The notes under the pieces are model-generated. The model saw nothing but the letters and a program-made list of their open reading frames with translations, searched no databases and was not told where the DNA came from. DNA of 23,941 bases from Candidatus Eiseniibacteriota bacterium (GTDB lineage Bacteria > Eisenbacteria > RBG-16-71-46 > DASYSL01), in contig JANPEF010000149.1 of NCBI GenBank assembly GCA_031431875.1, positions 1-23,941 on the forward strand, written 5' to 3'. Shown in pieces: positions 5,644 through 23,941 of the stretch. A program made the translations under genes and the position numbers. Within the stretch, counting starts at the first letter, position 1; each line of letters opens with the position of its first letter.

Positions 5644-5647
5644 GCGG

Positions 5648-6495: not shown

Positions 6496-7341
6496 GCGCC
6501 AGCGGGAATTCAATGTCGAGTTGCGCATGCCGTGGAGCAGGTAGAAGTCGAAGGTCATCCCGATGCGCTCCAGGGGCTCAAGATCCGGCTCCCCAAAGCC
6601 CGCGCGCTCCATGAGGAATCCGATTGCCTGGTGATAGGGATAGACGTGGTCGAGGTGCTCGAGCGCGTCGACGATTTCTGCGCCCTTTACGCGACCGTGC
6701 GCGCCCCGGTACGCCTCGAGCACCTGTTGGACTCCCCCTGCATAGGCTGGTCGAACTGCGATGTCCACGAGGGTGCGTGCGATGCCGGTCACGGGGAGCG
6801 ATTCACCGTGGAGCCCGGGCATGACGGAAACGCCCCAGGCTCCAGTCTGCTTGCCGCTGAGGATGACCGCCCGGTGCGTGCCGAACGCAAAGATGTAGTT
6901 CGACGTCCGCTGCCGGCGGGAGAACGCCATCGTCAGGCGTTCTTGCAGGAGGCCCCCGCCACGAGGCTTCGCCGACTGCTCCTGATTGACGTGGATCGTC
7001 TTGGGGAGCTGATCGTTCAGCCCGTGCAGGAACACGGCCGTCCCATGCGAGAGGTAGCCGCGCGGACGCAGCGAGAGCGCCATGCGGAATGGGGAGTACT
7101 CGCCCCACGTGTAGCGAGTGACCTGTCCGTAATCCTCGGACTTGAGCTGGACGACCTGGAGTCCGAGGGACTCGATCAAGAATGCGATGAAGGCGCGGGC
7201 GGGCACCCGTTTCGCGAGGGCCCATTCCTCCGCGTGCTCGGATCGAAGCGAGATGAGTTCGGCCTCGGTGAAGACCCCGCCGGGCTTCTTCGCTAGTTCG
7301 CTCCGGATCTGTCCAGCGGCCCGGTCCAGGCTGCTTTCCAT
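6472..7341 (-). CDS. AbiEi-family antitoxin / transcriptional regulator (type IV TA)
   Basis: 289 aa, with a GGGAG RBS before ATG 7341. Motifs YLSHGTAVFLHGLNDQLPKTIHV and VTGIARTLVDIAVRPAYAGG are typical of AbiEi C-terminal domains, and the gene adjoins an AbiEii gene. Confidence 0.82.
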   Translation of the reverse strand: MESSLDRAAGQIRSELAKKPGGVFTEAELISLRSEHAEEWALAKRVPARAFIAFLIESLGLQVVQLKSEDYGQVTRYTWGEYSPFRMALSLRPRGYLSHGTAVFLHGLNDQLPKTIHVNQEQSAKPRGGGLLQERLTMAFSRRQRTSNYIFAFGTHRAVILSGKQTGAWGVSVMPGLHGESLPVTGIARTLVDIAVRPAYAGGVQQVLEAYRGAHGRVKGAEIVDALEHLDHVYPYHQAIGFLMERAGFGEPDLEPLERIGMTFDFYLLHGMRNSTLNSRWRLFVPEGF

Positions 7342-7358
7342 CGGAACTCTCCCTTTGT

Positions 7359-7390
7359 TGACGGTCTAGGTATATATACCTAGACCGTCA
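7359..7390. repeat. Perfect 32-bp palindrome 1 (putative operator)
   Basis: TGACGGTCTAGGTATA|TATACCTAGACCGTCA, ending 17 bp upstream of the abiEi-like start codon. Confidence 0.95.
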
Positions 7391-7523: not shown

Positions 7524-10500
7524 TTATGAAATCAACCACTCCAGGTCCTCGCGGCTCAGCGAGCGGGCGAAGCCCTCCTCGCCCAGGACTTCCTTCGCCA
7601 GCGTGGCCTTCTTCTGCTGCAGCTCCCAGATCTTCTCCTCGATGCTGTCGCGCGTCAGCAGGCGATAAGCCGTCACCTTGCGCGTCTGCCCGATGCGATG
7701 TGTGCGGTCGATCGCCTGCGCCTCGACCGCCGGGTTCCACCACGGATCGAACAGCACGACGTAGCTCGCCGCCGTCAGATTGAGTCCCGTGCCACCGGCC
7801 TTGAGCGAGACGAGGAACACGCACGCCGCGGGATCGTCGGTGAAGCGCTGGACGACGGCTTCGCGGTCCTTCTCGTTCGTCTTCCCCGTCAGCATGTGGT
7901 GCGGGATCTCGCGCTCGTTCATGTCGCGCGCGACAAGGGCCAGGCACTCGACGAACTGCGAGAACAACAGCACCTTGTGCCCCTCGGCGAGCAGCGGCTC
8001 GAGCAGCTCCCACAGCGCGTCGAACTTGCCCGAGGGCGAGCGTGTCGGGGCGCCGACCAGCGCCGGGTGATCGCAGATCTGGCGCATGCGGGTGAGGATC
8101 GCGAGGATCTGGAAGCGATCCTCGTTCAGCTTCTTCGGGTCGCCCTCGCCGCCGGCCAGGATGGCGCGGGCGCGCTGGACCTGCTCGAGGTACAGCTTCT
8201 TCTGCACGGGCGTGAGCTCGCAGTCGCGGCGCTCCTCGGTGCGCGGCGGCAGCTCCTTCGCGACGACGCTCTTCATGCGGCGCAGCAGCACCGGGCGCAG
8301 GCGTGCGGCGAGCAGGCGGCGCACCGCGGGCGGCGCGTCGACCGGATCGTAGCGCGCCGTGAATTGGCGGCGGCTGCCCAGGAACCCCGGGCTGGCGAAC
8401 GAGAGGATGCTCCACAGGTCGAGCGCGCGGTTCTCGAGCGGCGTGCCGGTCAGCGCGAGGCGGTGCCTGGCCTTCAGTTCGCGCGCCGCGCGCGTCACGT
8501 CGGTGTTGGGATTCTTGATGTTCTGCGCCTCGTCGAGGATCACCGCGCCGAAGTCGATCGTCTTCAGCTCCTCGATGTCGCGACGCATGAGCGCGTAGTT
8601 GGTCACCCACAGGTGGGCGCGCGTGGCCTCGCGCTTGAGCGTGGTGCGCCGCTCGGCGCCGGTGAGGCGCACCACGGCGAGCTTCGGCGTGAAGCGCGCC
8701 GCCTCGCGCTGCCAGTTGTGGACGACCGACGCCGGGCACACGACCAGCACCGGTCCCAGCTCCGGATCCTGCTCCCGGAGCCACGCGATCCACGCCAGCG
8801 CCTGGATCGTCTTCCCCAGGCCCATGTCGTCGGCGAGGATCGCACCCAGCCCCAGCGATGCGGCGAAGGCGAGGAAGTCGACGCCGGTCTGCTGATATCC
8901 GCGAAGCGTGCCTTTGAATGCAGGGGGCACCTTGACCGCGGGCAGGCCTTCAAACGCTTCCACTCTTGCCCGCAGCTCCTCGATCGCCTTGAGCGAATCG
9001 GCGCCGCCGATCTCGGCGAGCGTGGCCAGGGACTCGGGACGCGCCTGCGCCAGTTGCCACACGCTCACGCGTTGCTCCCCGCCGCCGGTCTCGAGGCCCA
9101 GGTCGGCGAGCGCTTCGGCGGTGCGATCGAGCTCGTCGTTCGTCTCGCGGCGCACCCAGCCCGAGGGCAGGCGCACGAACTTGCCGGTGGCGCGGCGCAG
9201 GAGGGTGAGGTCCTCCTCGCTGAGGACCAGGTCCTCGCTCTCCCACTGCGCGGTGACGCCGAACCAGTCGACGCCCGACGGGCGCACCGAGATCTTCGCG
9301 CGCACGGAGCGCGTGCCCTCGAGCAGGCGTTGCGCGCGCGAGGTGGCGAACCAGCGGACATCGTCGGGGCGCGTGCCCCACGCTTCGTCGAACGTGGCCA
9401 GGCGCTTGGCCGTCAGCCGGATTTCCCAGCCGCTGTCCCCGTTGCGCGCGCCGGTGCGGGCGAGCCACTCGACGGTGGGTGAGAGTGGCGTCGTGTCGAG
9501 CAGGTGAAGGTGCGCGGGATCGACGGTCTTGCGTCGCCCGGCGGGGCCGTCGACGATCGGCTCCCAGCGCCGTGCGGGGCCGTACTCGTGGGCGCACGCC
9601 TCGGGGGCGGGGTCGTCGCCCGGGGCCCACGCGGAGCCCTCGGCCGCAGCGAAGAGTTGCATCACCAGCAGGTCGTCGTCGTCGGACGCCAGGTCGAGGG
9701 CCACGATGGCGCGGCCCGGGACGACCCGCAGGTGCGGCGCCAGCGCCTCGCGCATGGTCGGGAAGCGCTGGGCCAGTGCCCCGAGCAGCGGCGTGTGGCG
9801 CACGGGCTCGACCGGCAGCCCGCCGAGCGTGGCCAGTTCGTCGACCAGGTCGGCGGGCGGCGACGCGCCGACCAGGTATGCCTCGTCATTGCAGAAGAGG
9901 AAGTCCGGATGGGCCCGCCCGCCGTGCCGACCGCCGCGCGCGAGGTACGCCTGGTGGAGCGGGCGCGAGCGCCCGTCGGGCCAGCGCGCCTCGAGATCGA
10001 GGGCCAGTCCGCCGCCCGCGTCGGCGCGCACCGTGGGGACGATGCGCGCGGCGCGCGACCCCAGGCTCACGACGCCGCCGGGGGTGAGCCCGCAGCGCGC
10101 GGCGACATCGGGATCGAGCGCGTTCGTCCAGGTGACCGCGGGCGTACCGCCGGCGACCTCGAGCACGCGACGGATCGCGGTCGTCGTGGGAAAGCGCGCC
10201 GTGCCGTAGTTCCATCCCGAGGCGAGCCCGTTGAGGAACGCCTCGAGCATCTCCATCTGGTCCTCGGGGAGCAGGCCGGGCTTGCGCAGCGACTCGGTGC
10301 GCAGGTGCTCGAGCTGGCCGATCGTGCGCGGCTGGTCGACGGTGCGCGGCGTGGTGAGGCGGCCCTCGATCTCGACCGTGGGCACGTCGTCGGGCCCGGG
10401 TGCCAGGTCGAGCACGAAGCGCAGGCTGCGCGGATTGACCGCGGTCTCGGCATCGGCTTCGGCGCTCCAGCGGGCGAGCCGCAGTGCGATGGCCTCGCGC

Positions 10501-11114
10501 CGGCGCGTCAGCATGTGCGCGTCGAGGTCGGCGCGCTGCCGGTACGGCTCGAGCGCGCTCGGGAGCCAGCCCTGCGCCTCCTCGGGCAGCGCCTGCGCCA
10601 GCCGCCAGCACAGGAGGTCGGGATCGTTCTCCTCGAGGATCTCGCGGAACGGCGGCAGGTGCGTGTGGACCAGCACGCCCGGCCGCGCGCGCTGCAGCGG
10701 CCGCAGCAGCTCGCGCAGGAAGCCCATGCGCTCCCACGAGGTGCGCGCCGTGCGCAGGCCCTCGAGCGCGCGCAGGTCGGGCGGTGCTGCGGGCGCGGCG
10801 GCGGCGACGCCGTCGGCGGTGCGCAGGAACACCAGGCCCAGTGCGTAGGCGTGCTTGCACTCGCCCTGCATGGGACACGTGCAGTCGGTGCGCCAGCCGT
10901 GCGGCGTCCACGTCCACGTGGTCGTGTAGGCGCGGGTGCCGCGCACGCGCGCCTCGAAGCCGTGCGCACTGCGGCTGATCGTGCCCACCTGCCCCTGCGA
11001 GGCATAGGCGCGACCGCGGCCCTGGACCTGCTCGGAGAAGCGCTCGAGCGAGGTCCGGACCGCGGCGACACGTTCGCTGCTGAGGCCGGTGGGCGGCGGA
11101 GCGGAGGAAGGCAT
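7524..11114 (-). CDS. SNF2-family helicase/ATPase with N-terminal SWIM zinc finger
   Basis: SWIM CTCPMQGECKH; Q-motif LRGYQ; Walker A LADDMGLGKT; DEAQ; LTGTPLEN; SLKAGGTGLNLT; DPWWNPAVEAQAIDRTHRIGQ. Confidence 0.96.
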   Translation of the reverse strand: MPSSAPPPTGLSSERVAAVRTSLERFSEQVQGRGRAYASQGQVGTISRSAHGFEARVRGTRAYTTTWTWTPHGWRTDCTCPMQGECKHAYALGLVFLRTADGVAAAAPAAPPDLRALEGLRTARTSWERMGFLRELLRPLQRARPGVLVHTHLPPFREILEENDPDLLCWRLAQALPEEAQGWLPSALEPYRQRADLDAHMLTRRREAIALRLARWSAEADAETAVNPRSLRFVLDLAPGPDDVPTVEIEGRLTTPRTVDQPRTIGQLEHLRTESLRKPGLLPEDQMEMLEAFLNGLASGWNYGTARFPTTTAIRRVLEVAGGTPAVTWTNALDPDVAARCGLTPGGVVSLGSRAARIVPTVRADAGGGLALDLEARWPDGRSRPLHQAYLARGGRHGGRAHPDFLFCNDEAYLVGASPPADLVDELATLGGLPVEPVRHTPLLGALAQRFPTMREALAPHLRVVPGRAIVALDLASDDDDLLVMQLFAAAEGSAWAPGDDPAPEACAHEYGPARRWEPIVDGPAGRRKTVDPAHLHLLDTTPLSPTVEWLARTGARNGDSGWEIRLTAKRLATFDEAWGTRPDDVRWFATSRAQRLLEGTRSVRAKISVRPSGVDWFGVTAQWESEDLVLSEEDLTLLRRATGKFVRLPSGWVRRETNDELDRTAEALADLGLETGGGEQRVSVWQLAQARPESLATLAEIGGADSLKAIEELRARVEAFEGLPAVKVPPAFKGTLRGYQQTGVDFLAFAASLGLGAILADDMGLGKTIQALAWIAWLREQDPELGPVLVVCPASVVHNWQREAARFTPKLAVVRLTGAERRTTLKREATRAHLWVTNYALMRRDIEELKTIDFGAVILDEAQNIKNPNTDVTRAARELKARHRLALTGTPLENRALDLWSILSFASPGFLGSRRQFTARYDPVDAPPAVRRLLAARLRPVLLRRMKSVVAKELPPRTEERRDCELTPVQKKLYLEQVQRARAILAGGEGDPKKLNEDRFQILAILTRMRQICDHPALVGAPTRSPSGKFDALWELLEPLLAEGHKVLLFSQFVECLALVARDMNEREIPHHMLTGKTNEKDREAVVQRFTDDPAACVFLVSLKAGGTGLNLTAASYVVLFDPWWNPAVEAQAIDRTHRIGQTRKVTAYRLLTRDSIEEKIWELQQKKATLAKEVLGEEGFARSLSREDLEWLIS

Positions 11115-11126
11115 CCGCGCATTGTC

Positions 11127-13700
11127 TCACATCGCGATGAGCTTTCCTCCGCCGACGATCGCTCCGGCAACCCTCATCCGCACGAAATAGAGGCCGGGGG
11201 CGAGGCGTGCCCCAGCGGCGTCCCGTCCCTCCCAGGCCACCTGGCCGGGTCCGGCCGCATAAGTGCGCTCCGGGACCCGTGCGACGACGCGCCCGGCGAT
11301 GTTCATGATCTCGAAGCCCGCGGAGCTCTCGCTCGCCAGCTCGAACGCGAGTCGGGTGCCGGCCCCGCGGAGCGGGTTCGGCGCGGCGGCGCGGAAGCGG
11401 GTGACCGCGGTGGCGGCCGGAGTCGATCCCGCGTCCACGATCGTCGGGTTGACCGCCAGCGAGAACGAACCGTAGACCGTGTTCACCGCGCTCCGCTGGT
11501 GGAGCACGATCAGCCCGTACACGCCGCTCTCGGGCGGCGTGAACACGGTCGGGCCCGACGTGCGCAGGACCTGCCCGGGCCCACCCAGCGCCAGGTACTC
11601 CGGCGGGCAGTCGAGCGTGCACGTCGAGGTGCTCGCCAGGACGCTCTTCATGATGAACAGGTCGCCGGTGAATCCGACGGTCTGGAAGTGCACCGCATAG
11701 GGCTGCCCGCCGACCAGCTCGATGTTCCACACCTCCATGAAGTCGAATGGGCTGAGCGGGAATGCGTTCACGAAATCGCCCACCGCGAGCGTCGTGTTGT
11801 GCATCTCGAACTCGGCCTGCGCTCCTCCGCCGAGGGAGAGCCCCGCCGCCGGGTAGGCGCGCACCGTTTCCACCCACTCCTGGAACGGCGGCGGCGGGAT
11901 GTCGTAGCGCGCGAGGAAGTCGATCCGCGAGCCGATGCCGTCGTCGTTCGACGCGCCGAGGAGCCCGGCATTGCAGCCGAATGGCGCCGCCCCGCCCCCG
12001 CCGGACGGCGCGTCCCAGGCTTCGATCACCCAGTCCTCGGTGATCGCGTTGGGCAAGACGGCCACCGCCGACCAGCCGAAGCGACCGTGGAGCGTGGCGA
12101 GCGCCTCCCCGGCGTAGGGGACCGCGACTCCGTTCGACAGGACGATCGGCACGCCGTCCGGCAGCTCGGTGCGCGCCCGGCACGAGGAAACGGCCAGCTC
12201 CCAGCAATGGTTCTCGCCCGTGTCGTTGGTGAGCACGACGGCGTAGGCGCCCGTCACCGGCGGCGTGAGGACGAAGTCGTTCACCCCGGTGACGACCACC
12301 TCGGCGATCGGCCCGTGGTCGCTGTTGGGCGACGACCATCCGTTGCCGAGCGGCACGGTCGCATCGAACGGCCGGAACACGCGCAGTGTCCCCGTCGCCG
12401 GCCCGCACTTGGCCACGTGGAACGTGTACGGCGTGCCCGCGACCAGGTCGGCGCGGTACGTGCGGACGACCATGTCGAAGCCACCGACCTTGTACTGCGT
12501 CGGGCCGTCGACCGTCAGCACGTCAGTGCCGGGCGAGTACTCGATGCGCCCCTCGACGTCGGTCGACGCCGTCGCCCCCAGCCAGTAGCTGCCGCCGGGA
12601 GCGATCGCGCCGGAGACCAGGTCGCCGACGACGAGCGCGACACGTTCGCCGGACGCGCCCGAGGTCGCCTGCTCCTCTCCCTCACACGGGTAGAAGCCCG
12701 GCGCGACGTGCTTCGCGACCTTCGTCCAGAACCAGTCGCCGTCCTGCCCCGCGCGTGCGGCGATCGTCGGGAAGCCCGGCGGCCCGCCCGGCTCGAACTG
12801 GAAAGCCGTCTCGGGCAGCCCCGGGATCGCCGGCACCGGCAGGCTGACGTGCGGTTCGAGGTGCGGAGGGTCGACGCACGGCTGGACGTCGAACACGTAG
12901 TTGCTCGGGGAGTCCGTCTCGCTGACGACGACGAACGCGTAGCGTTCGGTCGCGGTCGCCGTGAGGATGGGCGGGAACGACAGGTTCGAGACCACCTCGA
13001 CCAGCGCGTTCGCCTTCGAGCGCCACGAGTTGCCGCCGCCGTGCCGGAATGCGTACAGCTTGTAGTCGCCCGAGTCCTGCGAGCGCAGCCGGATCTTGTA
13101 CGACGTGCCGCCGAGCAGGTCCACGCTCCAGCAGTCGATCAGCCCGCCGTTGCCCAGGCCGAAATTGTAACCGCCGCCGATGTTGGCGATGCGGTCGCCC
13201 GAGTCCCACTCGACGGTCGCGCTGCCGGTGCCACTGGTACGCGAGATCGGCGCATAGCGCGTGCCCGTGCCCTCGGCCGCGAAGTCGCCGAGCACGAAGT
13301 CGATGCCGCTGGCCTGCTGCGACGCGACGACGGGAAGAGTGACGCAGGCGGCGAACGGCGCCGAGCTGAGGGACAGCCCGATGTCCCAGTTTGCGGTGCC
13401 AGCCGACTTCACGGCGACCGCGGCCCAGCGGGCGCCGGACTGCGCGAACCGCGGAATCGTCGGATTGGTCGCGAACGCCTGCGGCGTATCGTCGACCAGG
13501 GTCGGGTAGCTGCAGACCTGTCCCGCCGCGGGAGCGGCGGCGGCGATCGCGGTGACGAACGCGAGTGCGGCGGCAACGCGCCGAAGGGCAGGCCGCCGGG
13601 GCGGACCTGCTCCTTCCGACTTGTGTACGGTTCGTACGTTCTGTACGGACTGTACGCTCACCTGCGGGACCCCCACTCGATCTCCGGCCTGACACTTCAT
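11127..13700 (-). CDS. Secreted protein with three internal repeat units and C-terminal FlgD-Ig/T9SS-CTD-like domain; start uncertain (ATG 13700 or GTG 13661)
   Basis: Signal peptide RRPALRRVAAALAFVTAIAAAAPAAG. Three similar units. Tail AAPNP...IMNIAGRVVA...WEGRDAAGARLAPGLYFVRM. Confidence 0.88.
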   Translation of the reverse strand: MKCQAGDRVGVPQVSVQSVQNVRTVHKSEGAGPPRRPALRRVAAALAFVTAIAAAAPAAGQVCSYPTLVDDTPQAFATNPTIPRFAQSGARWAAVAVKSAGTANWDIGLSLSSAPFAACVTLPVVASQQASGIDFVLGDFAAEGTGTRYAPISRTSGTGSATVEWDSGDRIANIGGGYNFGLGNGGLIDCWSVDLLGGTSYKIRLRSQDSGDYKLYAFRHGGGNSWRSKANALVEVVSNLSFPPILTATATERYAFVVVSETDSPSNYVFDVQPCVDPPHLEPHVSLPVPAIPGLPETAFQFEPGGPPGFPTIAARAGQDGDWFWTKVAKHVAPGFYPCEGEEQATSGASGERVALVVGDLVSGAIAPGGSYWLGATASTDVEGRIEYSPGTDVLTVDGPTQYKVGGFDMVVRTYRADLVAGTPYTFHVAKCGPATGTLRVFRPFDATVPLGNGWSSPNSDHGPIAEVVVTGVNDFVLTPPVTGAYAVVLTNDTGENHCWELAVSSCRARTELPDGVPIVLSNGVAVPYAGEALATLHGRFGWSAVAVLPNAITEDWVIEAWDAPSGGGGAAPFGCNAGLLGASNDDGIGSRIDFLARYDIPPPPFQEWVETVRAYPAAGLSLGGGAQAEFEMHNTTLAVGDFVNAFPLSPFDFMEVWNIELVGGQPYAVHFQTVGFTGDLFIMKSVLASTSTCTLDCPPEYLALGGPGQVLRTSGPTVFTPPESGVYGLIVLHQRSAVNTVYGSFSLAVNPTIVDAGSTPAATAVTRFRAAAPNPLRGAGTRLAFELASESSAGFEIMNIAGRVVARVPERTYAAGPGQVAWEGRDAAGARLAPGLYFVRMRVAGAIVGGGKLIAM
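13625..13656. repeat. Four GTACG copies at exact 9-bp period
   Basis: GTACG begins at 13625, 13634, 13643 and 13652. Confidence 0.8.
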
Positions 13701-14956: not shown

Positions 14957-15622
14957 CTAGGGAAGGGTGATGGGGTTCGTGTTCGAGCGGGCGATCTCGT
15001 CGGGACCGGCGTAGGCGGTGACGCGCCACAGCACGTCGTCACCGGAGGCATGCGCCATCAGGCCGGGGGGCAGGGCGGTGGAATCGAGCAGCAGTTCAGT
15101 CGCGGTCAGGTCGTCGACGCGTGCAACCTCGGTCAGGTCGCCGGCGAGGAATACGACGGCATAGTGCGTCGCAGCGGGCGCCTTGTTCCAGGTCAGGCGC
15201 GTGCGGCCGTCGCCGAGCACGGACATCGCCGGATGCGCCTGCCAGCCGGTGCTCGTCGCGGCCGGCCCGCGCAGCAGCGGCTCGGTCGCTTCGTTCACCG
15301 GCCCGTACTGCGTCCACACGCCGGCGATCACCACGATCGCGGCGGCGATGGCGAATAGCGGCCGCGCGGGCGCCGGCACGAGCCGCGCGAAGAACTCGCC
15401 GATGCCGCCCGGGGATCGATCGGCCACCGCACGCGCCGGAACACGCGTGGGCGGCTCGATCGTCACCCCGAGCTCGCGCTCCAGTTCGGCCAGGAGGTGC
15501 GCCTCCGCGTCGCCCAGCCGCGCCGAGTCGGGCAACGGGCCGGGCGCCAGGAACTCGGCGAGCGCCCGCGCGCGCGCGTCGTCGATCGGATCGGGCGTGC
15601 CGGGCGAGGTCGGCGTCGTCAT
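14957..15622 (-). CDS. Putative single-pass membrane anti-sigma factor with extracytoplasmic FN3/Ig-like domain
   Basis: Its ATG (15622) overlaps the sigma stop codon (ATGA). About 85-aa cytoplasmic N-terminus, TM segment PLFAIAAAIVVIAGVW, linker EPLLRG, then LTWNKAPAATHYAVVF...VLWRVTAY. 221 aa. Confidence 0.75.
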   Translation of the reverse strand: MTTPTSPGTPDPIDDARARALAEFLAPGPLPDSARLGDAEAHLLAELERELGVTIEPPTRVPARAVADRSPGGIGEFFARLVPAPARPLFAIAAAIVVIAGVWTQYGPVNEATEPLLRGPAATSTGWQAHPAMSVLGDGRTRLTWNKAPAATHYAVVFLAGDLTEVARVDDLTATELLLDSTALPPGLMAHASGDDVLWRVTAYAGPDEIARSNTNPITLP

Positions 15623-16206
15623 GCGGCCCCTCCTCGCGCGGCCAGCGCGCGGCGCAGTTTCTCTCGCGCGCTCTGCAAGACGGAGCGCGCGCCCGACACG
15701 TTTGACAGGCGCAGGATGCGCGTCACGTCGCCCACCGACAGGCGCTCGAAACAGCGCAGGAAAATGGCCTGCTGCTCCACCGGGTTCAGGGTCTCGCGGA
15801 GCAAGGCTTCCATGGCGTGTTCCTCCTCCGCGCTCTCGAGCAACCGGCCGGGATCGTCGTCGTCGACGAGGAACCACTCCGGATCGGCGTCGGGATCGCG
15901 CTTGAGCGACTTCGGGCGCAACGCCGTCAGGCACTCGTTGCGAGTCATCGCGAACAGCCACGACGGAAACCCGCTGCGACCGTCGAACTTCGACAGCCCG
16001 CGCCACGCCTTGAGCATCACGATCTGCGCGATGTCGAGCGCCTCGTCATGCTCGCGCATGAGTCGCAGCGCCCACGCGTAGACGCGACCCCGGTAACGTG
16101 CCAGCAGGAGCCCCGCCGCCTTCCGCCCGGTCTCCCCCTCGGGATCGGCGCGGAAGCGGCCCAGCAGGTCATTGTCGGGCGGTCCATCGGCGGCGTTCCA
16201 ATTCAT
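15619..16206 (-). CDS. ECF-subfamily sigma-70 factor
   Basis: 195 aa. Region 2 EALDIAQIVMLKAWRGLSKFDGRSGFPSWLFAMTRNEC; region 4 LNPVEQQAIFLRCFERLSVGDVTRIL...ARSVLQSAREKLR. Confidence 0.95.
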   Translation of the reverse strand: MNWNAADGPPDNDLLGRFRADPEGETGRKAAGLLLARYRGRVYAWALRLMREHDEALDIAQIVMLKAWRGLSKFDGRSGFPSWLFAMTRNECLTALRPKSLKRDPDADPEWFLVDDDDPGRLLESAEEEHAMEALLRETLNPVEQQAIFLRCFERLSVGDVTRILRLSNVSGARSVLQSAREKLRRALAARGGAA

Positions 16207-16233
16207 GAGACGCGGGGGCTCTCCATTCGTCAG
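16205..16233 (-). promoter_or_regulatory. Putative ECF promoter motif, copy 2 (CTGACGAAT-N12-CGTCTCAT), overlapping the sigma start codon
   Basis: 16 of 17 box positions and the spacing are identical to the copy at 21103-21131. The CGTC -10 core is typical of ECF promoters. Confidence 0.65.
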
Positions 16234-16243
16234 CCGGAAGTCT

Positions 16244-18979
16244 TCAGGACGGCCGCCGCGGGGACAGCGGCAGCCGGGTCCCGGGCTCGCCCACCAGCGC
16301 GAACGCGGCCCAGGCGCGAGGATGCGCCGTTTCGGGCCGGGCGCGCAAGGCCGCCCGCGCGGCCCGGGAGGCGGCGGCGGCGTCCTGCCCGGTGGCCAGC
16401 GAAGTATAGAAGGCGCTCATGTAGAGCTCCGCGGTCCGGTCCTCGACCGGCCACAGGGTGGCCACCACCGTGGTCGTGCCCGCACAGAGAAAGCCGGCCG
16501 TCAGGCCGAGCGCTCCTTCGCCCGCGAGCGCGACCGCCCCCGCCGACTGGCAACCCGACAGCACGGCCAGCCGCGCCTTCAGTTTCATGCGCGCCACGGT
16601 CGAGGCGCGCAGGTACGCGTCGTCCCCCGTGCCGCGACCGAGCAGGAAGCCCGAGCGCCAGGGCGAGCCCTCGACCGCGTCGGCGTGCGCCGCGAAGTGC
16701 AGCGCGTCGAACCGGGGCAGGTCGCCGGTCATCTCGGTGACGGTGCGCTCACCGCGATTGCTGCGCACGACGACACGTGCGTAGGCGTTGCCGAGGAGCG
16801 CCAGCTCGCGCTCGGCGCCCGGCAGGTCGCGTCCGCGGGCATCGGTCGTGCGACTGACCGCGAGCAGTTCGCCCGGTCCGGTCGTGCGCCGCGCGCGCGC
16901 GCGCAACAGCGTGAACAGCGTGGCCGACGGCGCGACGACGACCTCGCGGTTCACGTCGAGAGCCGCACTCTCGCCCGGCAACGTCAGCGCCGCATAGGGC
17001 CACAGGGCGAGCGGGCCGCCGCCGGTGACGATGATGCGCCGCGCGGGCTTGAGTGCCGCCGCGACCGGCGTGAGGATCTCGGTCGAGAGGCGCTTGAGTC
17101 CTGCTTCGGTCACCGTCGCACTGCCCCCGCCGAGCATGCCGTCGCGCCAGTCGCTGAACAGCGGGTCGAGGCTCCGGGTCCCAGGCAGCAGCCGCGCGAC
17201 CACGGTGGTCCGGGTGACGACGAAGGCGAACGTGGTCTCGGGCGTGGCGACCAGGTCGAGCAGCGCCTCGTCGGGCCGCAGCACGTCGCGGGCCAGCGAG
17301 TCGGCAGTGACACGGCGCACCATGGCCCGCGCAGCCAGGCCTTGACCTTGCATACGCTCCTCGAGCGTCCGTGCCTGGAACGTCTGCAGCGCGTCGAACG
17401 CCTGGCGCGCGCGTTTCTCCTCGGGCACGTTCCGCCGCGGGTCGAGATAGGCCAGCCCCAGTTCCGAGAACATGCCCGCCAGGCCCGAGCCGGCGCGCTC
17501 GCGCCACTCGAGGTCCGAGATCTCGGCGCGCCAGCGCTCCCACGAGCGCGCCGCCCGTGTCAGCGTTGCGATCGCGCTGTCCGGCTGCCCCACGCCGCGT
17601 TGCGCCCGTGCCAGCTCGACTGCCGCGTCGAGCGCGTAGATCGAGGTCTTCTGCTTCGCCGGCCCCCACGTGAGCCGGACGGCCTCGCGCGCCGGATCGA
17701 GCGCTTCGGAGTGCTTGCCCAGCGCGCGCCGGGCGGCGCTGCGTTCCATCAATGCGGCGCCGACGTTGTCGGGCGTCATGCGCGCCCGCCGGGCGGGCAC
17801 CAGCAGCGAGTCGATCAGGTCCTCGGCCGCGGCCGGACGGCCGGTGGTGCGCAGCAGCCCGGCGAGCTCGATGGTCGCGCCCTCCTCGAGGATGGCGTCG
17901 TCGGCGCTGGCCTCGGCGCGCACGCCGCGCAGCGTGCGCTCGGCCTCGGTGGAACGTCCGGCGCGGTACTGGAGCGCGCCGATCTCGCGGCGCACGCCAA
18001 GACGGATGTTCGGATTCGGAAGCTGGCCACTCAGGTCGTCGAGCCGCGTCAGCAGGGCCTCGGCCTCGTCGAGCTTGCCGAGTTCGATCAGCGCGTGGGC
18101 GCGATTGATGCGTGCGTTGATCGCGCTGCCACGGTCGGCGTTGCGCATGGCGAGTGTGTCGAAGTGCGCGGCGGCGATCTCCCAGTTGCGGTCGGCGGCC
18201 GCCATGTCGCCCTGTTCGAAGGCGACGATGCCGAGGTCGTTGAGCGCCGCGGCGGTCAGCCAGCGATTCTTGCGCTTGCGGGCCTCGGCGAGGACGGCAT
18301 CGAACTCGACGCGCGCCTCGTCGCGGCGGCCGAGGCGGTTGAGCACTTCTCCGTATAGGAAACGCGTGTGCAGCCAATAGAACGATTCGGGTCGGAGCTG
18401 GCGCATTGCGGCCGTCAGTTCCTTCTGCGCCTCGGGGTATCGGCCGTCGTTCTTCGCGATCGCGCCGAGTCCGCGGTGGGCGAGGCCCTCCAGCTCGACG
18501 AGACGGGCGCGGCGCGCCAGGCGGACGGTTTCCGTGAAGTCCCGTTTCGCCTCCGGAACCTTCCCGGCAAGGTCGGCCCCGTAACCGCGTCGCGCGATGA
18601 TCGTGACGATCGCGAAGGTGTCGCGCATCGCGCGCGCCGTGACGAGTGCTGAGTCGAGGATCGCGACACCGCGTGCGAACTCGTTGTCGTAGGTGGCGAA
18701 GCGGTCCCCGCGCCAGATCTGCGTCGCGGCGACAAGCGGGCGATCCCCGCGGGCCACCGCGACCCGGGCGATGGAATCGACGTAGGCTAGCCCGCGCGGG
18801 CTCGCGCCGCGGCCGAGAGAATCGGCGAACGCGTCGAACTTCAGGTACTCACGCTGGATCGGGCCTGCAGGCGCGGCGGCGCCGCCCGCCTCGACGCCGG
18901 CAAGCAGCGCGGCGACGAGGCAGAGGGCGACGGCCAGCAGGCGATTCGGCGCGAACGGCGTGCGCCATGGCGCGGGCAT
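16244..18979 (-). CDS. TPR-CHAT (caspase-like, clan CD) protease with N-terminal signal peptide
   Basis: Start ATG 18979 with GGAGAG RBS; hydrophobic N-terminus RLLAVALCLVAALLAGVEAGGAAA. TPR-like helices (ALNDLGIVAFEQGD, RINRAHALIELGKLDEA). CHAT dyad LHFAAHA (His 16685-16687) and VLSGCQS (Cys 16550-16552), plus VVATLWPVED and HPRAWAAF. 911 aa. Confidence 0.94.
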   Translation of the reverse strand: MPAPWRTPFAPNRLLAVALCLVAALLAGVEAGGAAAPAGPIQREYLKFDAFADSLGRGASPRGLAYVDSIARVAVARGDRPLVAATQIWRGDRFATYDNEFARGVAILDSALVTARAMRDTFAIVTIIARRGYGADLAGKVPEAKRDFTETVRLARRARLVELEGLAHRGLGAIAKNDGRYPEAQKELTAAMRQLRPESFYWLHTRFLYGEVLNRLGRRDEARVEFDAVLAEARKRKNRWLTAAALNDLGIVAFEQGDMAAADRNWEIAAAHFDTLAMRNADRGSAINARINRAHALIELGKLDEAEALLTRLDDLSGQLPNPNIRLGVRREIGALQYRAGRSTEAERTLRGVRAEASADDAILEEGATIELAGLLRTTGRPAAAEDLIDSLLVPARRARMTPDNVGAALMERSAARRALGKHSEALDPAREAVRLTWGPAKQKTSIYALDAAVELARAQRGVGQPDSAIATLTRAARSWERWRAEISDLEWRERAGSGLAGMFSELGLAYLDPRRNVPEEKRARQAFDALQTFQARTLEERMQGQGLAARAMVRRVTADSLARDVLRPDEALLDLVATPETTFAFVVTRTTVVARLLPGTRSLDPLFSDWRDGMLGGGSATVTEAGLKRLSTEILTPVAAALKPARRIIVTGGGPLALWPYAALTLPGESAALDVNREVVVAPSATLFTLLRARARRTTGPGELLAVSRTTDARGRDLPGAERELALLGNAYARVVVRSNRGERTVTEMTGDLPRFDALHFAAHADAVEGSPWRSGFLLGRGTGDDAYLRASTVARMKLKARLAVLSGCQSAGAVALAGEGALGLTAGFLCAGTTTVVATLWPVEDRTAELYMSAFYTSLATGQDAAAASRAARAALRARPETAHPRAWAAFALVGEPGTRLPLSPRRPS

Positions 18980-19023
18980 GGGGGGCTCTCCGGGCAGGTG
19001 GGGGGAGCACGAACCGGCGAGCG

Positions 19024-19032
19024 AGGATAGCA
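19024..19032 (-). promoter_or_regulatory. Possible extended -10 promoter (TGCTATCCT) for the CHAT gene
   Basis: TGn-TATCCT lies 45 bp upstream of ATG 18979, in the 83-bp intergenic gap. Confidence 0.45.
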
Positions 19033-19062
19033 CGCGCGCACGGCCGCGTCCCGCGGCCATCT

Positions 19063-21033
19063 CTAGCGCAGGAGGACCAGCCTCTGCTCCCTCGTCTGGA
19101 CCGCGCCACCGGCGCGAACGGTCAGGCGCGCGAAGTAGATGCCCGCCGCGGCCGCCCTGGCGCCCGTCGCACCGGTCCCGTTCCAATGCGCCGCGTGCGT
19201 CCCCGGCACCTGTTCACCCCGCGCCAGCGTCGCGACCCGTCGTCCGCGCAGATCGTAGACCGCGAGGTCCACATCGGCCGGCGCCGGCAGCGTGAACGTG
19301 AACGCGGTCGCGCCCGCGCTCGGATTCGGGCGCGGGGCCGAGAGCGCGATCGGGCCCGCGGCGCCGCCCGGCTCGACCCCGACCAGGGCATGCACGCGCA
19401 GGTACTTCGTGCAGGAGTGCGAGCGGACGTGATCCCGGGCGTTGGGGAACAGCGTGACTACGGCATCAGCCGCGCTATCCGGTACGGTGATCGTGTATGT
19501 CACGTCGGCGAACGAATTGGCGGGAACGACGACCGTGGCGGGCACGAGCCCATCCGTCCACGGGCGATTGCTGCCGACGATGTACGAGTACTCGTCGGCG
19601 AACAGCGCATTCCAGTTCGCGATGCGCCACTCGACCTGCACGGCATCTCCCGCCGTCGCCTCGAGCGTGTCGCCGCAGCCCTCGGTGAGCTCGAAGCCGC
19701 CGGCGACGAACGTGCGCGCGTAGACGTCCGGATCGGTTCCGCGATGGTCGGACCAGGCGAACGTGACTCGCCCCGCGGACGCCGCGGCGGCGCTCTGCCA
19801 GCCCATACCGCCGAAATTCGAGGCGACGCTGTCCCAATCGGTCGTCGCGGAGGCAAGCGGTTCCGGCTCGCTCGCCATCGCGCCCATGTTCCACAGGCGC
19901 GTGACCATGTACTTGGACACGCTGTCGGGATCGAACGGCTGGAAGTCGTGCCAGCCCAGGTAGAAGTAGCCGTCGTCGGCCATCGTCACGGCCGGGTGCA
20001 CCTCGTAGGAATACGGCAGGCGCGGCAGCATCGAGCCGAACGTGTTCCACGCCGTCCCCGCGCAGCAATCGGAGTTGAAGAAGACTTCGCTCGGATCGAG
20101 CTGCGGCCCGTAGAAGTGGGTGGAAGGCCAGAACGCCAGCCGCGTCGCCGGAAAGTCGAGCGAGTGCCTGGCAATCAACAGAGTCATGCGCTGGCTGAGC
20201 CGGGTCGGGCTCCCCGGACTGTCCGCACTGAAGCCGATCTGGCCGATGAGTTCCTCGGGGCCGAAAGTCAGGCCACCGTCGTGCGATGTGCGGGTGACGA
20301 TGTCGCTGGGAGGATCGAACTGTCCCGCGGCCCCCGTGAACCACCCGGCGACCACCATGCCGTTTGGCCCCGCGGCGAGCGTCGGGCCGGTGTGGTAGCG
20401 ACCGACCGGATTGGTGACGGCGATGTCCTGGGACGTGGCCGACCCGGCGTCCTGCGCGACCCGGTAGAGCCGCGGTCTCTGGACGCCGCTGTCGAAGTAC
20501 TGCGTGAGCAGCACGTGCGCCACTCCGGTTCCGTCCCCGGTCGCCAGGGCGAGCGTGGGCACGATGATGCTCGAGCCCTGGTAGAGGAAGAGCTCGAGGG
20601 GCTCGCGCCACGAGATGAGGCCGTTGCCCTGCACCGTCCCGTTCGTGACATAGACGCCGACCCGTGGCCCTGGAACCCCGATCGTGCGCGCGTAGCCCAC
20701 CATCCACAGCTGTCCCGTGTTCTCGTCATAGGCGATGTGCCCATCGGGTCGCCAGTACCAGTTCGACGGCAGCCCGGGCAACGGGATGTTTTGATAGCCC
20801 TCCCCGCCATTCTGGGACAGCGCGAGCCGGACCATGTCGACCGCCGTCGTCGTGTCCGCGCGATCGTAGGAGAGGACGTAGGTGCGCAGCTGCGCCATCG
20901 CGACCGACGGCGAGTGCTGGGTGCCCGGGACCAGGCCATGGACCCGGACGTCGGCCATGGTCGGCACGGACATCGTCGTGGCGGCAATCGCCCCGCAGAG
21001 AACGAGGGCAGACAAGAAGATGGAGCGGCGCAT
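19063..21033 (-). CDS. Secreted Asp-box/BNR beta-propeller-like protein with C-terminal FlgD-Ig/T9SS-CTD-like domain
   Basis: Start ATG 21033 (GAGG RBS), signal peptide MRRSIFLSALVLCGAIAATTMSVPTMA. Asp-boxes SQNGGEGY and SHDGGLTF, and AWSDHRGTDPDVY. Tail PRPNP...VYDLRGRRVATL...WNG...AAGIYFARL. Confidence 0.88.
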   Translation of the reverse strand: MRRSIFLSALVLCGAIAATTMSVPTMADVRVHGLVPGTQHSPSVAMAQLRTYVLSYDRADTTTAVDMVRLALSQNGGEGYQNIPLPGLPSNWYWRPDGHIAYDENTGQLWMVGYARTIGVPGPRVGVYVTNGTVQGNGLISWREPLELFLYQGSSIIVPTLALATGDGTGVAHVLLTQYFDSGVQRPRLYRVAQDAGSATSQDIAVTNPVGRYHTGPTLAAGPNGMVVAGWFTGAAGQFDPPSDIVTRTSHDGGLTFGPEELIGQIGFSADSPGSPTRLSQRMTLLIARHSLDFPATRLAFWPSTHFYGPQLDPSEVFFNSDCCAGTAWNTFGSMLPRLPYSYEVHPAVTMADDGYFYLGWHDFQPFDPDSVSKYMVTRLWNMGAMASEPEPLASATTDWDSVASNFGGMGWQSAAAASAGRVTFAWSDHRGTDPDVYARTFVAGGFELTEGCGDTLEATAGDAVQVEWRIANWNALFADEYSYIVGSNRPWTDGLVPATVVVPANSFADVTYTITVPDSAADAVVTLFPNARDHVRSHSCTKYLRVHALVGVEPGGAAGPIALSAPRPNPSAGATAFTFTLPAPADVDLAVYDLRGRRVATLARGEQVPGTHAAHWNGTGATGARAAAAGIYFARLTVRAGGAVQTREQRLVLLR

Positions 21034-21102
21034 GGCGTACCTCGTCCGAAGGGTCCGGGACCGGTGCTGCAACCGAAGCCGGGAAATCGGGGGCTTCCTC
21101 GA

Positions 21103-21131
21103 ATGAGACGATACGGGGGGAGATTTGTCAG
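21103..21131 (-). promoter_or_regulatory. Putative ECF promoter motif, copy 1 (CTGACAAAT-N12-CGTCTCAT)
   Basis: Lies 70 bp upstream of ATG 21033 and matches the copy in front of the ECF sigma gene. Confidence 0.7.
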
Positions 21132-21134
21132 GCG

Positions 21135-21196
21135 CAGCCCACTTTCAGCCCAATTCACCTATCTCAGGCAAGGCCAATTGGGCTGCAGCCCAATTG
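21135..21196. promoter_or_regulatory. Array of four CAGCCCA(A/C)TT half-sites including a perfect 22-bp palindrome
   Basis: CAGCCCACTT 21135-21144 and CAGCCCAATT 21146-21155, then CAATTGGGCTG|CAGCCCAATTG 21175-21196. Confidence 0.7.
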
Positions 21197-21225
21197 ACTC
21201 GCACCAGTGCGAGTCGTTCGGGCAG

Positions 21226-23583
21226 TCAGGGCTTCTGGACGGCGATTCCCATGCGCTGCATCTTGGCGATCAGCGTCGTCCGGCTGGTGCCCAGCGAGTT
21301 GGCGGCACGCTGCTTGTTCCAGTTGTGGGAATGGAGGGCGTCGAGCACGCGGCGGCGTTCCTCGGCTTCGAGCGCCTCGGGCAGCGAGCGTGGCCGCGGC
21401 GCGCCCTCGAGCACGAACGGCAGGCGGCGCAGCTCGGCACCATCGGCGGTCAGGGCGACCAGCCGCTCCATGACGAGGCGAATCTCGCGCACGTTTCCCG
21501 GCCACGAGTGGCCGGCCATCTCCTCGCGCAACTCGGGCGTGAGGGTGATCGTCTTCTCCTGCTCCCGCGCGAACTTCGCGAGGAAGTGATCGATCAGCAG
21601 CTTCGCATCCTCGGGACGCTCCCGCACCGGCGAGAGCTGGACGACATAGCCCGCCAGGCGATGATAGAGGTCGAGCCGGAACTCGCCGGCCGCGACCATT
21701 GCGGGGAGCCCGCGATGCGTCGCCGCGACCACGCGCACGTCGACGACGCGGGCCGTGTTCTCGCCGAGCCGGCGCACCTCGCCGCCCTCGAGCGCCCGCA
21801 GCAGTCGCGCCTGCGCCTTGAACGGCATGTCGCCGATCTCGTCGAGGAACAGCGTGCCCTGGTGCGCGAACTCGAACAGCCCGACGCGCTCGCGATCGGC
21901 ACCCGTGTACGCCCCACGCGCATGGCCGAACAGCTCGCCCTCGATGAGGTCGCCCGGGAACGCGCTGCAGTTGATCGGCACGAACGGCCCTGTGCGACCG
22001 CTCTGGATGTGCACGGCCTGCGCGATGAGTTCCTTGCCGGTGCCGCTTTCGCCCAGCACGAGAATATTCAGCCGCCGTGGTGCCAGCGAGCGCACGATCC
22101 CCAGCATCTGCTTGGTCGCCGAATCGACCGTGAGGAAGCCGGGGATGATGGGCTCGGCGGACTCGATCTGGCGGGTCGTGGGGCGCCTGGCGCGCTGCTT
22201 GGCGGGCTCCGTGGTTGGCCCTGTCGCGTCGGCGCCCCCTGAGATCTCCGCGAGCACGTCCCCGGCTTCGGCGATCAGGTGCTCGGCCCCGATGCGCTGA
22301 AACAGCCGGTGCGACTCGGCCGCGAGCGTCATCGCGTCGACGCGCCGCCCCTCGGCGAGCGCATGTCGCGCCAGGGCGAGGGAGGCACGTGCGAAGCCGT
22401 GGTCGTCGCCGATCGTGTTGCCGATCTGGCGCGCCTCTTCGAGTGCCGACACCGCTGCGGAGGACTCGGCGAGCGAGTTCAGCACGTTGGCGAGGACGTA
22501 AAGGGAGGTTCCGAGCTCGAACGTGTCCCCCTGCTCGCGCGCGATCGCGACCGATTCCTCGATGAGCGTGTGAGCGTTCTTGGCTTCCCCGCACGCGAGC
22601 TCCGCGGCAGCCAGGCCCCGTAGGCACTCGAGAACGAGATCCGTCGCCTTGCCATGGCCGCGCGCGAGCAGCAACGCTTCGCGATACCGCTCGCGGGAGG
22701 CCTCGTGGTTGCCCAGGTCAAGGTCGCAGTCGCCGAGGAATTCTAAGGCGAGCACGAGGGTCCGCGGTTCGTTCTCGCCGCGGAGTTCTGTCACAATTGA
22801 TTCGAGTCGTGCTCTTGCGTGAAGCGACTCACCCAAACACCTCAAGGCTCGTGCCTCTGCGATTCGAGACAGGACGGCATGCCCGGTGAATCCAAGGGCG
22901 GTAAATACAGTGGCAGAGTCACCTGCGAGCGATGCGGACTCAACCAGTTGACCACGACGGAGGAGCAGGGTTGCGAGGTTGAGCTCGCTACGTGCCTTGC
23001 CGGTCGGCGAGTCCTCTTCCGTCGCGAGTCTAAGTGCGTGGCGAAGAAGTCGCTCTGCTTCGCGCAGATCGCCCGAATTCTTGAGCACCAAGCCAAGATT
23101 CATTAGGGCGCGCCCTTCCATTTGGCGGCTCCCTGCTCTGCGCGATGCAACAATTGCCTCTTCAAAACGCTCGCGAGCGTTCGCGTACTCCCCGCGGCGA
23201 TAAGAAACCGCTCCCAGGGCGAGGCAAAACGCCGCCGCTTCGGCCTCTCGGCCCAGATTGAGGGCCAAGCGATGTCCGGAAGTGAAGTGTTGTGCTGCGA
23301 GCTCGAATGCTTCGTTGCGAATTGCTAGCTGGCAAGAAAACAAGGAAAACGCGATTGCATGAGCAGCCGACTGTTCTTTCCAGGATGACAAAGTCTCGGC
23401 AAACTGCTCAACGCGCTCCCGTTCTCCTGCCATCGCCAGGTCGGTGATCGCGTTGATCAAGACGACGCGCTCGGTTACCGAGAGAGCGACACGGTCATCC
23501 AATTGCGCGATCAGTTCGTGCGCGTGCTGATTGCTCGCCTCCGCGAGCTGGTTCGGGCCATTCGCGCCGACTAGTTTCGCCAC
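21226..23583 (-). CDS. Sigma54-dependent enhancer-binding protein (AAA+ and Fis HTH) with long N-terminal TPR sensor; start uncertain (GTG 23583 preferred over ATG 23730)
   Basis: GESGTGKE, ELFGHARGAYTGA, LFLDEIGD, FRLDLYHRL, WPGNVRE and HTH WNKQRAANSLGTSRTTL. TPRs such as LALGAVSYRRGEYANA and ALMNLGLVLKNSGDLREA. No receiver domain. GTG 23583 avoids a 160-bp overlap with the upstream ORF. Confidence 0.93.
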   Translation of the reverse strand: MAKLVGANGPNQLAEASNQHAHELIAQLDDRVALSVTERVVLINAITDLAMAGERERVEQFAETLSSWKEQSAAHAIAFSLFSCQLAIRNEAFELAAQHFTSGHRLALNLGREAEAAAFCLALGAVSYRRGEYANARERFEEAIVASRRAGSRQMEGRALMNLGLVLKNSGDLREAERLLRHALRLATEEDSPTGKARSELNLATLLLRRGQLVESASLAGDSATVFTALGFTGHAVLSRIAEARALRCLGESLHARARLESIVTELRGENEPRTLVLALEFLGDCDLDLGNHEASRERYREALLLARGHGKATDLVLECLRGLAAAELACGEAKNAHTLIEESVAIAREQGDTFELGTSLYVLANVLNSLAESSAAVSALEEARQIGNTIGDDHGFARASLALARHALAEGRRVDAMTLAAESHRLFQRIGAEHLIAEAGDVLAEISGGADATGPTTEPAKQRARRPTTRQIESAEPIIPGFLTVDSATKQMLGIVRSLAPRRLNILVLGESGTGKELIAQAVHIQSGRTGPFVPINCSAFPGDLIEGELFGHARGAYTGADRERVGLFEFAHQGTLFLDEIGDMPFKAQARLLRALEGGEVRRLGENTARVVDVRVVAATHRGLPAMVAAGEFRLDLYHRLAGYVVQLSPVRERPEDAKLLIDHFLAKFAREQEKTITLTPELREEMAGHSWPGNVREIRLVMERLVALTADGAELRRLPFVLEGAPRPRSLPEALEAEERRRVLDALHSHNWNKQRAANSLGTSRTTLIAKMQRMGIAVQKP

Positions 23584-23915
23584 GACTGCGCCCCCGGCTT
23601 CCGCAGAATGGTAAGAAAGAGGCGTGAAGACCGGATGCGGTCCCATAGAGAGCGGGCTGTGTTTGGTTGAACTTCCGGCGCTATGGTGGACGTCGGATCG
23701 TACGTAACTGTTGAACGAAGGTCGCCCCAATCGTCATCGACGGGAAGTTGTCGAGGGCCACCGGGCGAGTCAGGATCCCCCATCCTCGGATCCAATCGCA
23801 GCACCGGCATCGACTCCGCCGAGCAACTCCGGAGGACCGGCGCGCAAAGACTCGACGCGATCGTGAAGACGACCGCGCATGCGGCGAGAGCGATGAAGAA
23901 TCGGGGTGTCTTCAT
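23571..23915 (-). CDS. Small secreted protein / putative signalling propeptide (114 aa)
   Basis: Strong AAGGAGG RBS at 23925-23931. Sec-type signal MKTPRFFIALAACAVVFTIASSLCA...SCSA, acidic Pro/Gly core MGDPDSPGG, and basic amphipathic C-terminus SLWDRIRSSRLFLTILRK. Its stop overlaps the likely start of the activator. Confidence 0.75.
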   Translation of the reverse strand: MKTPRFFIALAACAVVFTIASSLCAPVLRSCSAESMPVLRLDPRMGDPDSPGGPRQLPVDDDWGDLRSTVTYDPTSTIAPEVQPNTARSLWDRIRSSRLFLTILRKPGAQSWRN

Positions 23916-23941
23916 CTCGGGGTTCCTCCTTGTCGGACGGG

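Follow-up and report, generated by a model that had tools for sequence, protein, structure and literature searches.

A phylum-wide gene pair of a small putatively exported protein and a TPR-containing sigma-54 activator in Candidatus Eiseniibacteriota, a candidate peptide signalling system

A 23,941-nucleotide stretch of Candidatus Eiseniibacteriota DNA, which is the whole of contig C149 (JANPEF010000149.1) of a 98%-complete genome and is referred to below as the window, carries on its minus strand a gene for a small, predictedly exported protein followed by a gene for a sigma-54 activator whose input region consists of tetratricopeptide repeats (TPR). These two genes constitute a real gene pair that is found across the phylum, and its anatomy and its possible role in peptide signalling are the subject of this work. 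The features of the pair in the window are as follows.

23571..23915, minus strand: small protein predicted to be exported, candidate propeptide; 114 aa, ATG start; without a Pfam or NCBIfam family
23925..23931, minus strand: Shine-Dalgarno sequence AAGGAGG, 9 nt 5' of the small open reading frame (ORF)
23817..23915, minus strand: predicted Sec-type signal peptide, residues 1-33; cleavage after Ala33 predicted by hand
23763..23780, minus strand: family core motif G[DE]PDxP (here GDPDSP); G46 and P48 invariant
23598..23657, minus strand: basic C-terminal segment with Trp, residues 87-106; differs between alleles, candidate specificity element
21226..23583, minus strand: TPR-AAA+-helix-turn-helix (HTH) sigma-54 activator; most likely 785 aa with start at GTG 23583, longest ORF from TTG 23730
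22243..23583, minus strand: all-helical TPR sensor, about 11 hairpins of 40 aa each; variable in its front half, polar residues conserved family-wide in its rear half
21418..22125, minus strand: AAA+ sigma-54 interaction domain with lid; intact Walker A/B, GAYTGA as sigma-contact loop (21898-21915)
21253..21372, minus strand: Fis-type HTH, by domain search

A first-pass annotation of this DNA had described a 114-aa ORF with a strong ribosome-binding site, a signal peptide and a compact acidic core, all of which, positions included, is borne out, with LDPRMGDPDSPGG lying at 23795..23757 and GDPD at 23780..23769. The signal peptide joins a basic N-terminus (K2, R5) to a hydrophobic stretch (best 19-aa Kyte-Doolittle mean 2.37), and in an alignment of 146 small proteins the predicted cleavage site has Ala at -1 in 92% and at -3 in 51%; a Sec-type n-region, h-region and Ala-x-Ala pattern are present and conserved, from which export is predicted. 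The mature protein, of about 80 aa, runs from a Pro/Gly-rich linker through G[DE]PDxP, whose G46 and P48 are invariant in both the 32- and the 146-sequence sets, and a variable spacer to a basic, usually Trp-containing tail. Among the best 150 of 210 representatives the median length is 108 aa, with 51-63 aa from the motif to the end. The tail had been called amphipathic and basic: the second term holds family-wide (median net charge +4 over the last 25 aa, Trp within the last 30 aa in 78% of 149 tails), and the first is not supported beyond composition, the helical hydrophobic moment being no higher than in composition-matched shuffles (median z -0.04 over 146 sequences; window z +1.07). In the window the tail has too polar a composition to form a classic transmembrane helix (best 19-aa mean 0.14); 7% of the 149 tails exceed 1.6 over 19 aa, and some distant ones resemble membrane anchors.

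No Pfam family matches more than one of the 146 small proteins, and the ESM Atlas returned no match for the window's. An identity as lipoprotein was rejected, Cys24 not being kept in eight close homologues, so that a conserved lipobox Cys is missing, and a SecM-like arrest peptide was set aside on account of the motif lying 51-63 codons before the stop. The core motif is repeated in several distant members. Among loci L008:244-1115, L021:268-1105, L092, L093 and L106 there are tandem copies of the small gene, in one case with G[DE]PD repeated three times, and tandem arrangements of two distinct pair types next to the tuf tRNA cluster; a scan of activator loci showed the small gene twice at two of them. 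Contig C125 overlaps the end of the window by 141 nt and carries, just outside it and about 205 nt upstream of the small gene, a promoter that we take to be of sigma70 type from its resemblance to the consensus, together with a leader; both are conserved in four window-type loci, although this leader folds no better than shuffled sequence. Among the public runs listed as containing the locus, none is an RNA run.

The activator comprises TPR_12 (Pfam, E 3.7e-18), Sigma54_activat, AAA_lid_14 and HTH_8 domains, and no transmembrane segment (best 19-aa mean 1.34). With an AAA+ domain bearing Walker A/B, a loop of the GAFTGA type in its GAYTGA variant and an HTH, it shows the hallmarks of sigma-54 enhancer-binding proteins and is a true member of them with a new input; every NCBIfam equivalog score listed for it falls below cut-off. 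Its start is most likely GTG 23583, because close homologues measure 780-786 aa and because in two other loci (G002 and L041) the activator starts within the last codons of the small gene. The overlap of the two genes that had been noted from the first reading therefore stands, at 13 nt, with the start moved from TTG 23730, and the input region, which had been put at about 480 aa of TPR-like helices, consists of TPR helices as proposed and measures about 450 aa. A stop or a frameshift breaks the reading frame of some homologous activators (L094:2498-2502; L093:1470-3973; L024), which may be pseudogenes or assembly errors.

The model of the sensor (pLDDT 91) predicts about 11 helical hairpins. 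Its best fold match is domain III of MalT (1hz4; Z 30.5, root-mean-square deviation (rmsd) 3.6, 356 residues aligned), and it also aligns with APPBP2 (Z 30.0), Rap phi105 (Z 27.2, rmsd 3.7, 338 aligned), NprR-NprX (Z 26.6, rmsd 4.7, 341 aligned), Pins (Z 26.6), AimR (Z 23.5) and PlcR (Z 19.1). By sequence, its best matches in the PDB are Pins/LGN (E 1.5e-9). The ESM Atlas offered generic TPR clusters only, and a fold search with the full-length activator returned AAA+ domains only. Polar residues conserved at predicted groove positions, which we assigned by the usual TPR numbering, are N183, N223, R295, E302, E340 and R343 (numbering of an 806-aa form), some of which may be structural; among 27 distant activators N183 is kept in 24, N223 in 26 and R295 in 27. 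A complex prediction for the TPR domain and the mature small protein, run without controls, scored 0.01 and is evidence neither way.

The first-pass annotation had suggested examining homologous activators for an upstream ORF with a signal peptide, the lack of which would speak against the pair, and such an ORF is present at every informative locus. Anchored on the activator, 31 loci (one a duplicate sequence and eight cut by contig ends) leave 22 that are informative, and the small ORF lies upstream in all 22, of which 21 were seen in the first scan and the last, L024 with its split activator, was found later. The same holds where the small protein itself is hard to recognise: 26 genomes with no (20) or a weak (6) match to the peptide profile contain 30 activator loci, two of them cut, and in 28/28 with upstream DNA a signal-peptide ORF of 86-130 aa precedes the activator, 22 of these ORFs with G[DE]P and six with variants such as GDND or GSPD. 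Anchored on the peptide, a TPR gene comes next in 29 of 30 strong and 15 of 18 weaker matches, the misses being two contig ends and two false matches. A profile of the 146 small proteins matches 103 of 151 sampled genomes of the phylum, and a profile search of the whole library gave 210 representatives at 50% identity, nearly all of about 95-135 aa. G[DE]P is found in 149 of 150 library members, a count that is partly circular because the profile contains the motif, and therefore the activator-anchored counts are relied upon; a further tally of 39/41 includes AAA-only matches and is not used as a pair count.

The window's own genome provides a control. Only three of its 19 sigma-54 activators are preceded by a signal-peptide ORF with G[DE]P, and these are exactly the three with N-terminal TPRs, namely that of the window and two paralogues, on contigs C35 and C28. 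Four long ones among the remaining 16 were scanned and comprise two receiver types and two kinase/NTPase-TPR-GAF types cut by contig ends, and the other 12 are without a match to the window's TPR region. In a loose genome-wide scan, 1204 small ORFs were called as signal-peptide-like, 38 of them with G[DE]P, and only three adjoin a sigma-54 activator. A metagenome-assembled genome of Ca. Eisenbacteria has an activator 72% identical to that of the window, and a homologue of the activator (P0213) is named from Ca. Krumholzibacteriota. A metagenome scan with the peptide alignment found only two loci; a viral scan gave one match, with no such ORF among those listed, which was read as false, and a plasmid scan gave no match.

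Comparison with two genomes of the same genus, G001 and G002 (in the latter the locus is split over two contigs), revealed that part of the pair behaves as a unit of exchange.

22752..23761, minus strand: exchangeable cassette, peptide tail and front TPR half; to 22421 against G002; lower GC at third codon positions (GC3)

Against G001 the DNA is 85% identical up to 23770, cannot be aligned to 22752 and is then 83% identical, and against G002 it is 87% identical up to 23761, with alignment restored from 22421 (97.8% identity for the following 2.7 kb and 92% for 14 kb); both left breaks lie directly 3' of the GDPD codons, and the activator becomes alignable again some 300-410 codons from its start. 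At the paralogous loci the alignment has no break (92.6% and 95.2% to G002, 87.4% to G001), and because the breaks frame the peptide tail and the front TPR half while these paralogous pairs are continuous, the two together are regarded as an exchangeable cassette. In protein terms, the activator is 36/85/94% identical to that of G001 over residues 1-275/276-450/500-785, compared with 92/94/98% for the C35 paralogue, and same-genus alleles of the peptide are 78-80% identical up to residue 51 and 34-39% beyond it, paralogue tails being 82-95% identical. In the activator, GC3 lies at 0.58-0.68 over the first 300 codons and rises to 0.80-0.94 beyond. Throughout the non-alignable DNA the small-gene frame stays open and its length is kept, and residues 1-51 change least at second codon positions. 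Contigs of one public run, from the same study as the possible source, bridge the cassette boundaries without differences, and a second study has short identical pieces of the region, so the cassette is not an assembly chimera. No second allele was seen at the locus in the public reads, among the rows listed. The co-variation of peptide and TPR for which the first reading had called is thus found as one exchanged block of tail and TPR front half, and across 59 pairs (about 10 of 29 type-C rows being cut at a later motif) variable front TPRs go with variable tails, cluster by cluster.

A hint at the kind of output comes from the paralogues. A -24/-12 site lies 200-400 nt downstream of the pair in 14 of 15 tuf-linked loci and in six of seven GAF-type loci, and behind it, in the tuf-linked type, comes a conserved stretch of 330-480 nt in which no conserved ORF was seen and which ends in a terminator.

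L032:5025-5370 (G000 C35 ~7025-7370), also L102-L113, L092 and L093: predicted sigma-54-dependent structured RNA, 14 of 15 tuf/tRNA-linked loci

The predicted RNA has 57 predicted pairs, 27 of them with two-sided change, and a helix closing 5' to 3' end; an anti-Shine-Dalgarno-like loop is present in 13 of 14 and absent from the own-genome copy, six of the stretches fold at z -1.2 to -7.3, and no Rfam family was matched. It is not tmRNA, which the genome encodes on C50. After the sigma-54 promoter of the TPR-GAF paralogue stands a different conserved, ORF-poor and hairpin-rich stretch (L033:5628-6100, G000 C28 ~21130-21610; L114-L118), and a second sigma-54 site behind it precedes a gene for a predicted lipoprotein and an outer-membrane gene that we presume to be PorV-like. 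For the window pair itself, no consensus sigma-54 promoter was found within 350 nt downstream, the only candidate being a doubtful 9/11 site 389 nt upstream. An autoinduction loop is not supported, since no sigma-54 consensus of at least 9/11 was found upstream of 25 homologous small genes and only the doubtful one for that of the window.

Several neighbours in the window deserve mention. Between the pair and the next gene, 21135-21215 is a composite hairpin repeat of a REP/BIME-like family dispersed over seven or more contigs. Its perfect 22-bp palindrome (21175-21196) was rejected as a binding site of the activator on finding the same dispersed hairpin repeat on C8, C21, C76, C88, C118 and C133. 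The repeat is followed by a gene for a secreted protein with an FlgD-Ig tail (19063-21072), present in G002 too and missing between the activator and CHAT genes in G001, and at 14957-19186 by a TPR-CHAT (caspase-like) protein with a signal peptide, then an ECF-type sigma factor and a probable membrane anti-sigma factor, kept in both genomes. A lower-GC island (0.62; 5585-7341) holds an AbiEi-type antitoxin gene (6472-7341, minus strand) facing a gene on the plus strand that we take to be AbiEii-like and that seems split over two frames (5585-5920 and 5836-6495), with an SNF2 helicase beside the island at 7524-11114. A metalloprotease-like secreted ORF cut by the window start (3-3248), a secreted M1 aminopeptidase with an FlgD-Ig tail (3367-5643) and another secreted FlgD-Ig-tail protein (11127-13700) have no link to the pair in evidence.

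Among known systems, the likeness to the RRNPP(A) group (Rap-Phr, NprR-NprX, PlcR-PapR, AimR-AimP) is manifold: the gene of a small protein with a predicted Sec signal peptide adjoins that of a cytoplasmic TPR protein, the superhelix of the latter can be superposed on those of Rap, NprR, AimR and PlcR and has conserved Asn and Arg at predicted groove positions, and matched pairs are polymorphic, as described for NprR/NprX in PMC3763537. On the other hand, the host here is a diderm, as the first reading had supposed, with eight Omp85 matches in its genome; an N-terminal TPR region drives a sigma-54 AAA+ domain and a C-terminal HTH, the opposite of the order in RNPP regulators, where the HTH stands first and the TPRs last; and the small protein has two separated conserved elements. 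The signature given in PMC10075063 combines a propeptide of 10-100 aa with a receptor of 250-500 aa that begins with an HTH or a phosphatase-regulating region, compared with 114 and 785 aa in the window, some family members falling below 100 aa and hence within the propeptide range. As precursor size, receptor size and domain order fail that signature, the pair is not a member of RRNPP, and common ancestry is not established because the structural alignments show only 9-13% identity. The Pro-Asp of the NprX heptapeptides, whose Asp binds a conserved Arg according to PMC3763537, is an analogy only.

Other comparisons illuminate single aspects of the pair. As in agrBDC and comQXP (PMC5007282, PMC4408185), where the small gene is that of the signal precursor, close relatives differ jointly in the small gene and in the N-terminal sensor part of the gene after it and agree in the output domain and the flanks, although the receptors of those systems are membrane histidine kinases in a cassette with a processing enzyme and here a soluble sensor is fused to the activator, with no adjacent processing gene. 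The AAA+ sigma-54 domain, lid and Fis HTH are those of enhancer-binding proteins such as NtrC, PspF, HrpS and LuxO, with GAYTGA as in HrpS (PMC3105312), and the difference lies in an input of about 450 aa of TPR in place of REC, GAF or PAS. MalT domain III and the TPRs of LGN/Pins, the best fold and PDB sequence matches, are not known to be paired with an exported mini-protein; MalT is a STAND/LuxR regulator sensing maltotriose, and LGN is eukaryotic and binds long peptides. The sigma-54 promoter and structured RNA that follow the paralogues bring to mind LuxO and Qrr. In the literature searched, to which survey supplements, a possible place for such pairs, did not belong, no description was found of the pair, the motif or a sigma-54 activator so gated, and the pair is apparently undescribed in print.

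We give about an even chance to a two-gene signal-receptor pair in which the propeptide, once exported, would be processed and taken back into the cell for binding by the TPR domain, its tail conferring allele specificity, and if this holds, the pair would work most like RRNPP peptide signalling. The small protein would share its transcript with the activator, be exported through the Sec route and lose its signal peptide by cleavage after Ala33, and a fragment of its mature part would re-enter the cytoplasm, either of the producing cell or of a neighbour, and bind the groove of the TPR domain. Recognition of the shared GDPD core may fall to the conserved rear repeats or to a shared step of import or processing, and that of the variable tail, as its co-variation suggests, to the variable front repeats. 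Binding would then switch the AAA+ ring on or off and so control sigma-54 promoters, a role established for this domain. For the window's paralogue type, the joint swapping of tail and front TPRs between close relatives would correspond to strain-specific 'pherotypes' as in agr and comQXP. The gene pairing, its conservation, the cassette and the fold were computed, and every molecular step of this scheme is one that we infer.

The first reading, which saw a possible peptide/TPR module with the GDPD segment as candidate mature signal, is partly supported, by the pairing, the co-variation, the Rap/NprR-like fold and the diderm host. GDPD alone cannot confer specificity for pair or kin, because all three paralogues of the genome share it and it falls within the cassette's conserved flank, and it may still be part of the ligand because several distant members repeat the core; the tail behind it is the likely specificity element, as judged from sequence. 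In favour of a re-imported signal, N183, N223 and R295 are conserved, which may parallel the binding of peptide via Asn in RNPP receptors and of the conserved NprX Asp via Arg in NprR (PMC3763537), and the genome, which has rpoN, encodes six family-5 solute-binding proteins. A number of points weigh against it. A mature protein of about 80 aa, as predicted, is far longer than RNPP signals, which are 5-11 aa out of precursors of 20-60 aa (PMC3763537), and one short imported peptide cannot carry both core and tail, as these lie 40-55 aa apart. The neighbourhoods of the pairs showed no gene for a dedicated protease or importer, a search of the 98%-complete genome did not find SbmA/BacA, and no sigma-54 promoter was found beside the window pair, whose GAYTGA loop may moreover limit its activity, the Tyr of this loop in HrpS allowing activation within limits (PMC3105312). 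The tail correlates equally with the front and rear TPR halves (Spearman 0.58 and 0.59 over the 59 pairs), tail and front TPRs, being adjacent on the DNA, would be moved together by any recombination tract, and the tuf-linked type keeps a similar tail over many genera, as could be expected of a housekeeping partner no less than of a signal. The top match of the modelled fold, MalT domain III, is a non-peptide sensor, and the fold by itself neither singles out RRNPP nor implies quorum sensing.

Some of these points are met more easily if the pair acts within one cell, which we consider rather improbable overall and yet, as a membrane-tether or export-monitor mechanism, a serious rival. The small protein would monitor export or the envelope, either because its unexported precursor binds the TPRs with core and tail together, or because the protein, retained in the inner membrane by a signal anchor or by its tail, sequesters or releases the activator, possibly after intramembrane cleavage. 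Two conserved elements at a remove of 40-55 aa and the tight length of the protein would be explained without an importer, translational coupling would give matched amounts, and the anchor-like tails of distant members and the match to MalT, which is sequestered by partner proteins, are in keeping with it; the conserved Ala-x-Ala cleavage site and the polarity of the window's tail, too great to span a membrane, are not, and the exchange of alleles at the window copy between close relatives, with the paralogues fixed, is left unexplained. An indirect coupling is unlikely: the exported protein would act in the periplasm or on other cells, as a kin tag, a membrane-active or antagonistic peptide or the regulator of a third protein, while the TPRs sense another ligand or a downstream effect, and the co-variation would reflect linkage or a toxin-immunity-like relation. 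Basic Trp-rich tails are reminiscent of membrane-active peptides, and a variable C-terminus beside the variable N-terminus of the next gene of the layout of polymorphic toxins and their immunity proteins; TPR folds bind non-peptide ligands as well, and ComR is reported to be activated by metabolites (PMC12998947). It is nevertheless at odds with a gene order kept in 50 of 50 informative activator loci of the phylum sample, in which no third conserved gene was seen, and the small gene is not simply a regulated output, because it lies upstream of the activator and has no adjacent sigma-54 promoter. That the ORF is a chance or untranslated leader ORF, without a function tied to the activator, is strongly disfavoured and very improbable: neither protein nor transcript has been observed and no family model matches, and yet the 210 representatives are nearly all of one size, ribosome-binding site, signal peptide and motif are conserved, and the frame and codon-position pattern persist as described above.

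Peptide signals read by cytoplasmic TPR receptors have been described as a Gram-positive trait (PMC10075063, PMC12998947). With somewhat less than even confidence, the pair may represent a phylum-wide peptide signalling system of diderms, independent of the RRNPP systems of Firmicutes, in which a re-imported propeptide gates a sigma-54 ATPase via its TPRs, large, so far undescribed regulatory RNAs are under the control of fixed paralogues, and signal-receptor alleles swapped by the window's paralogue serve to tell kin from non-kin. If the pair instead acts within one cell, it would constitute a new way of monitoring protein export or the envelope. If the signalling system is real, direct peptide signalling would be extended to a diderm phylum and enhancer-binding proteins would gain a new input class, and how a peptide re-crosses two membranes would become a question. 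The natural allele series, together with paralogues that have identifiable sigma-54 promoters, makes the pair testable in Escherichia coli and a possible source of orthogonal peptide-controlled switches.

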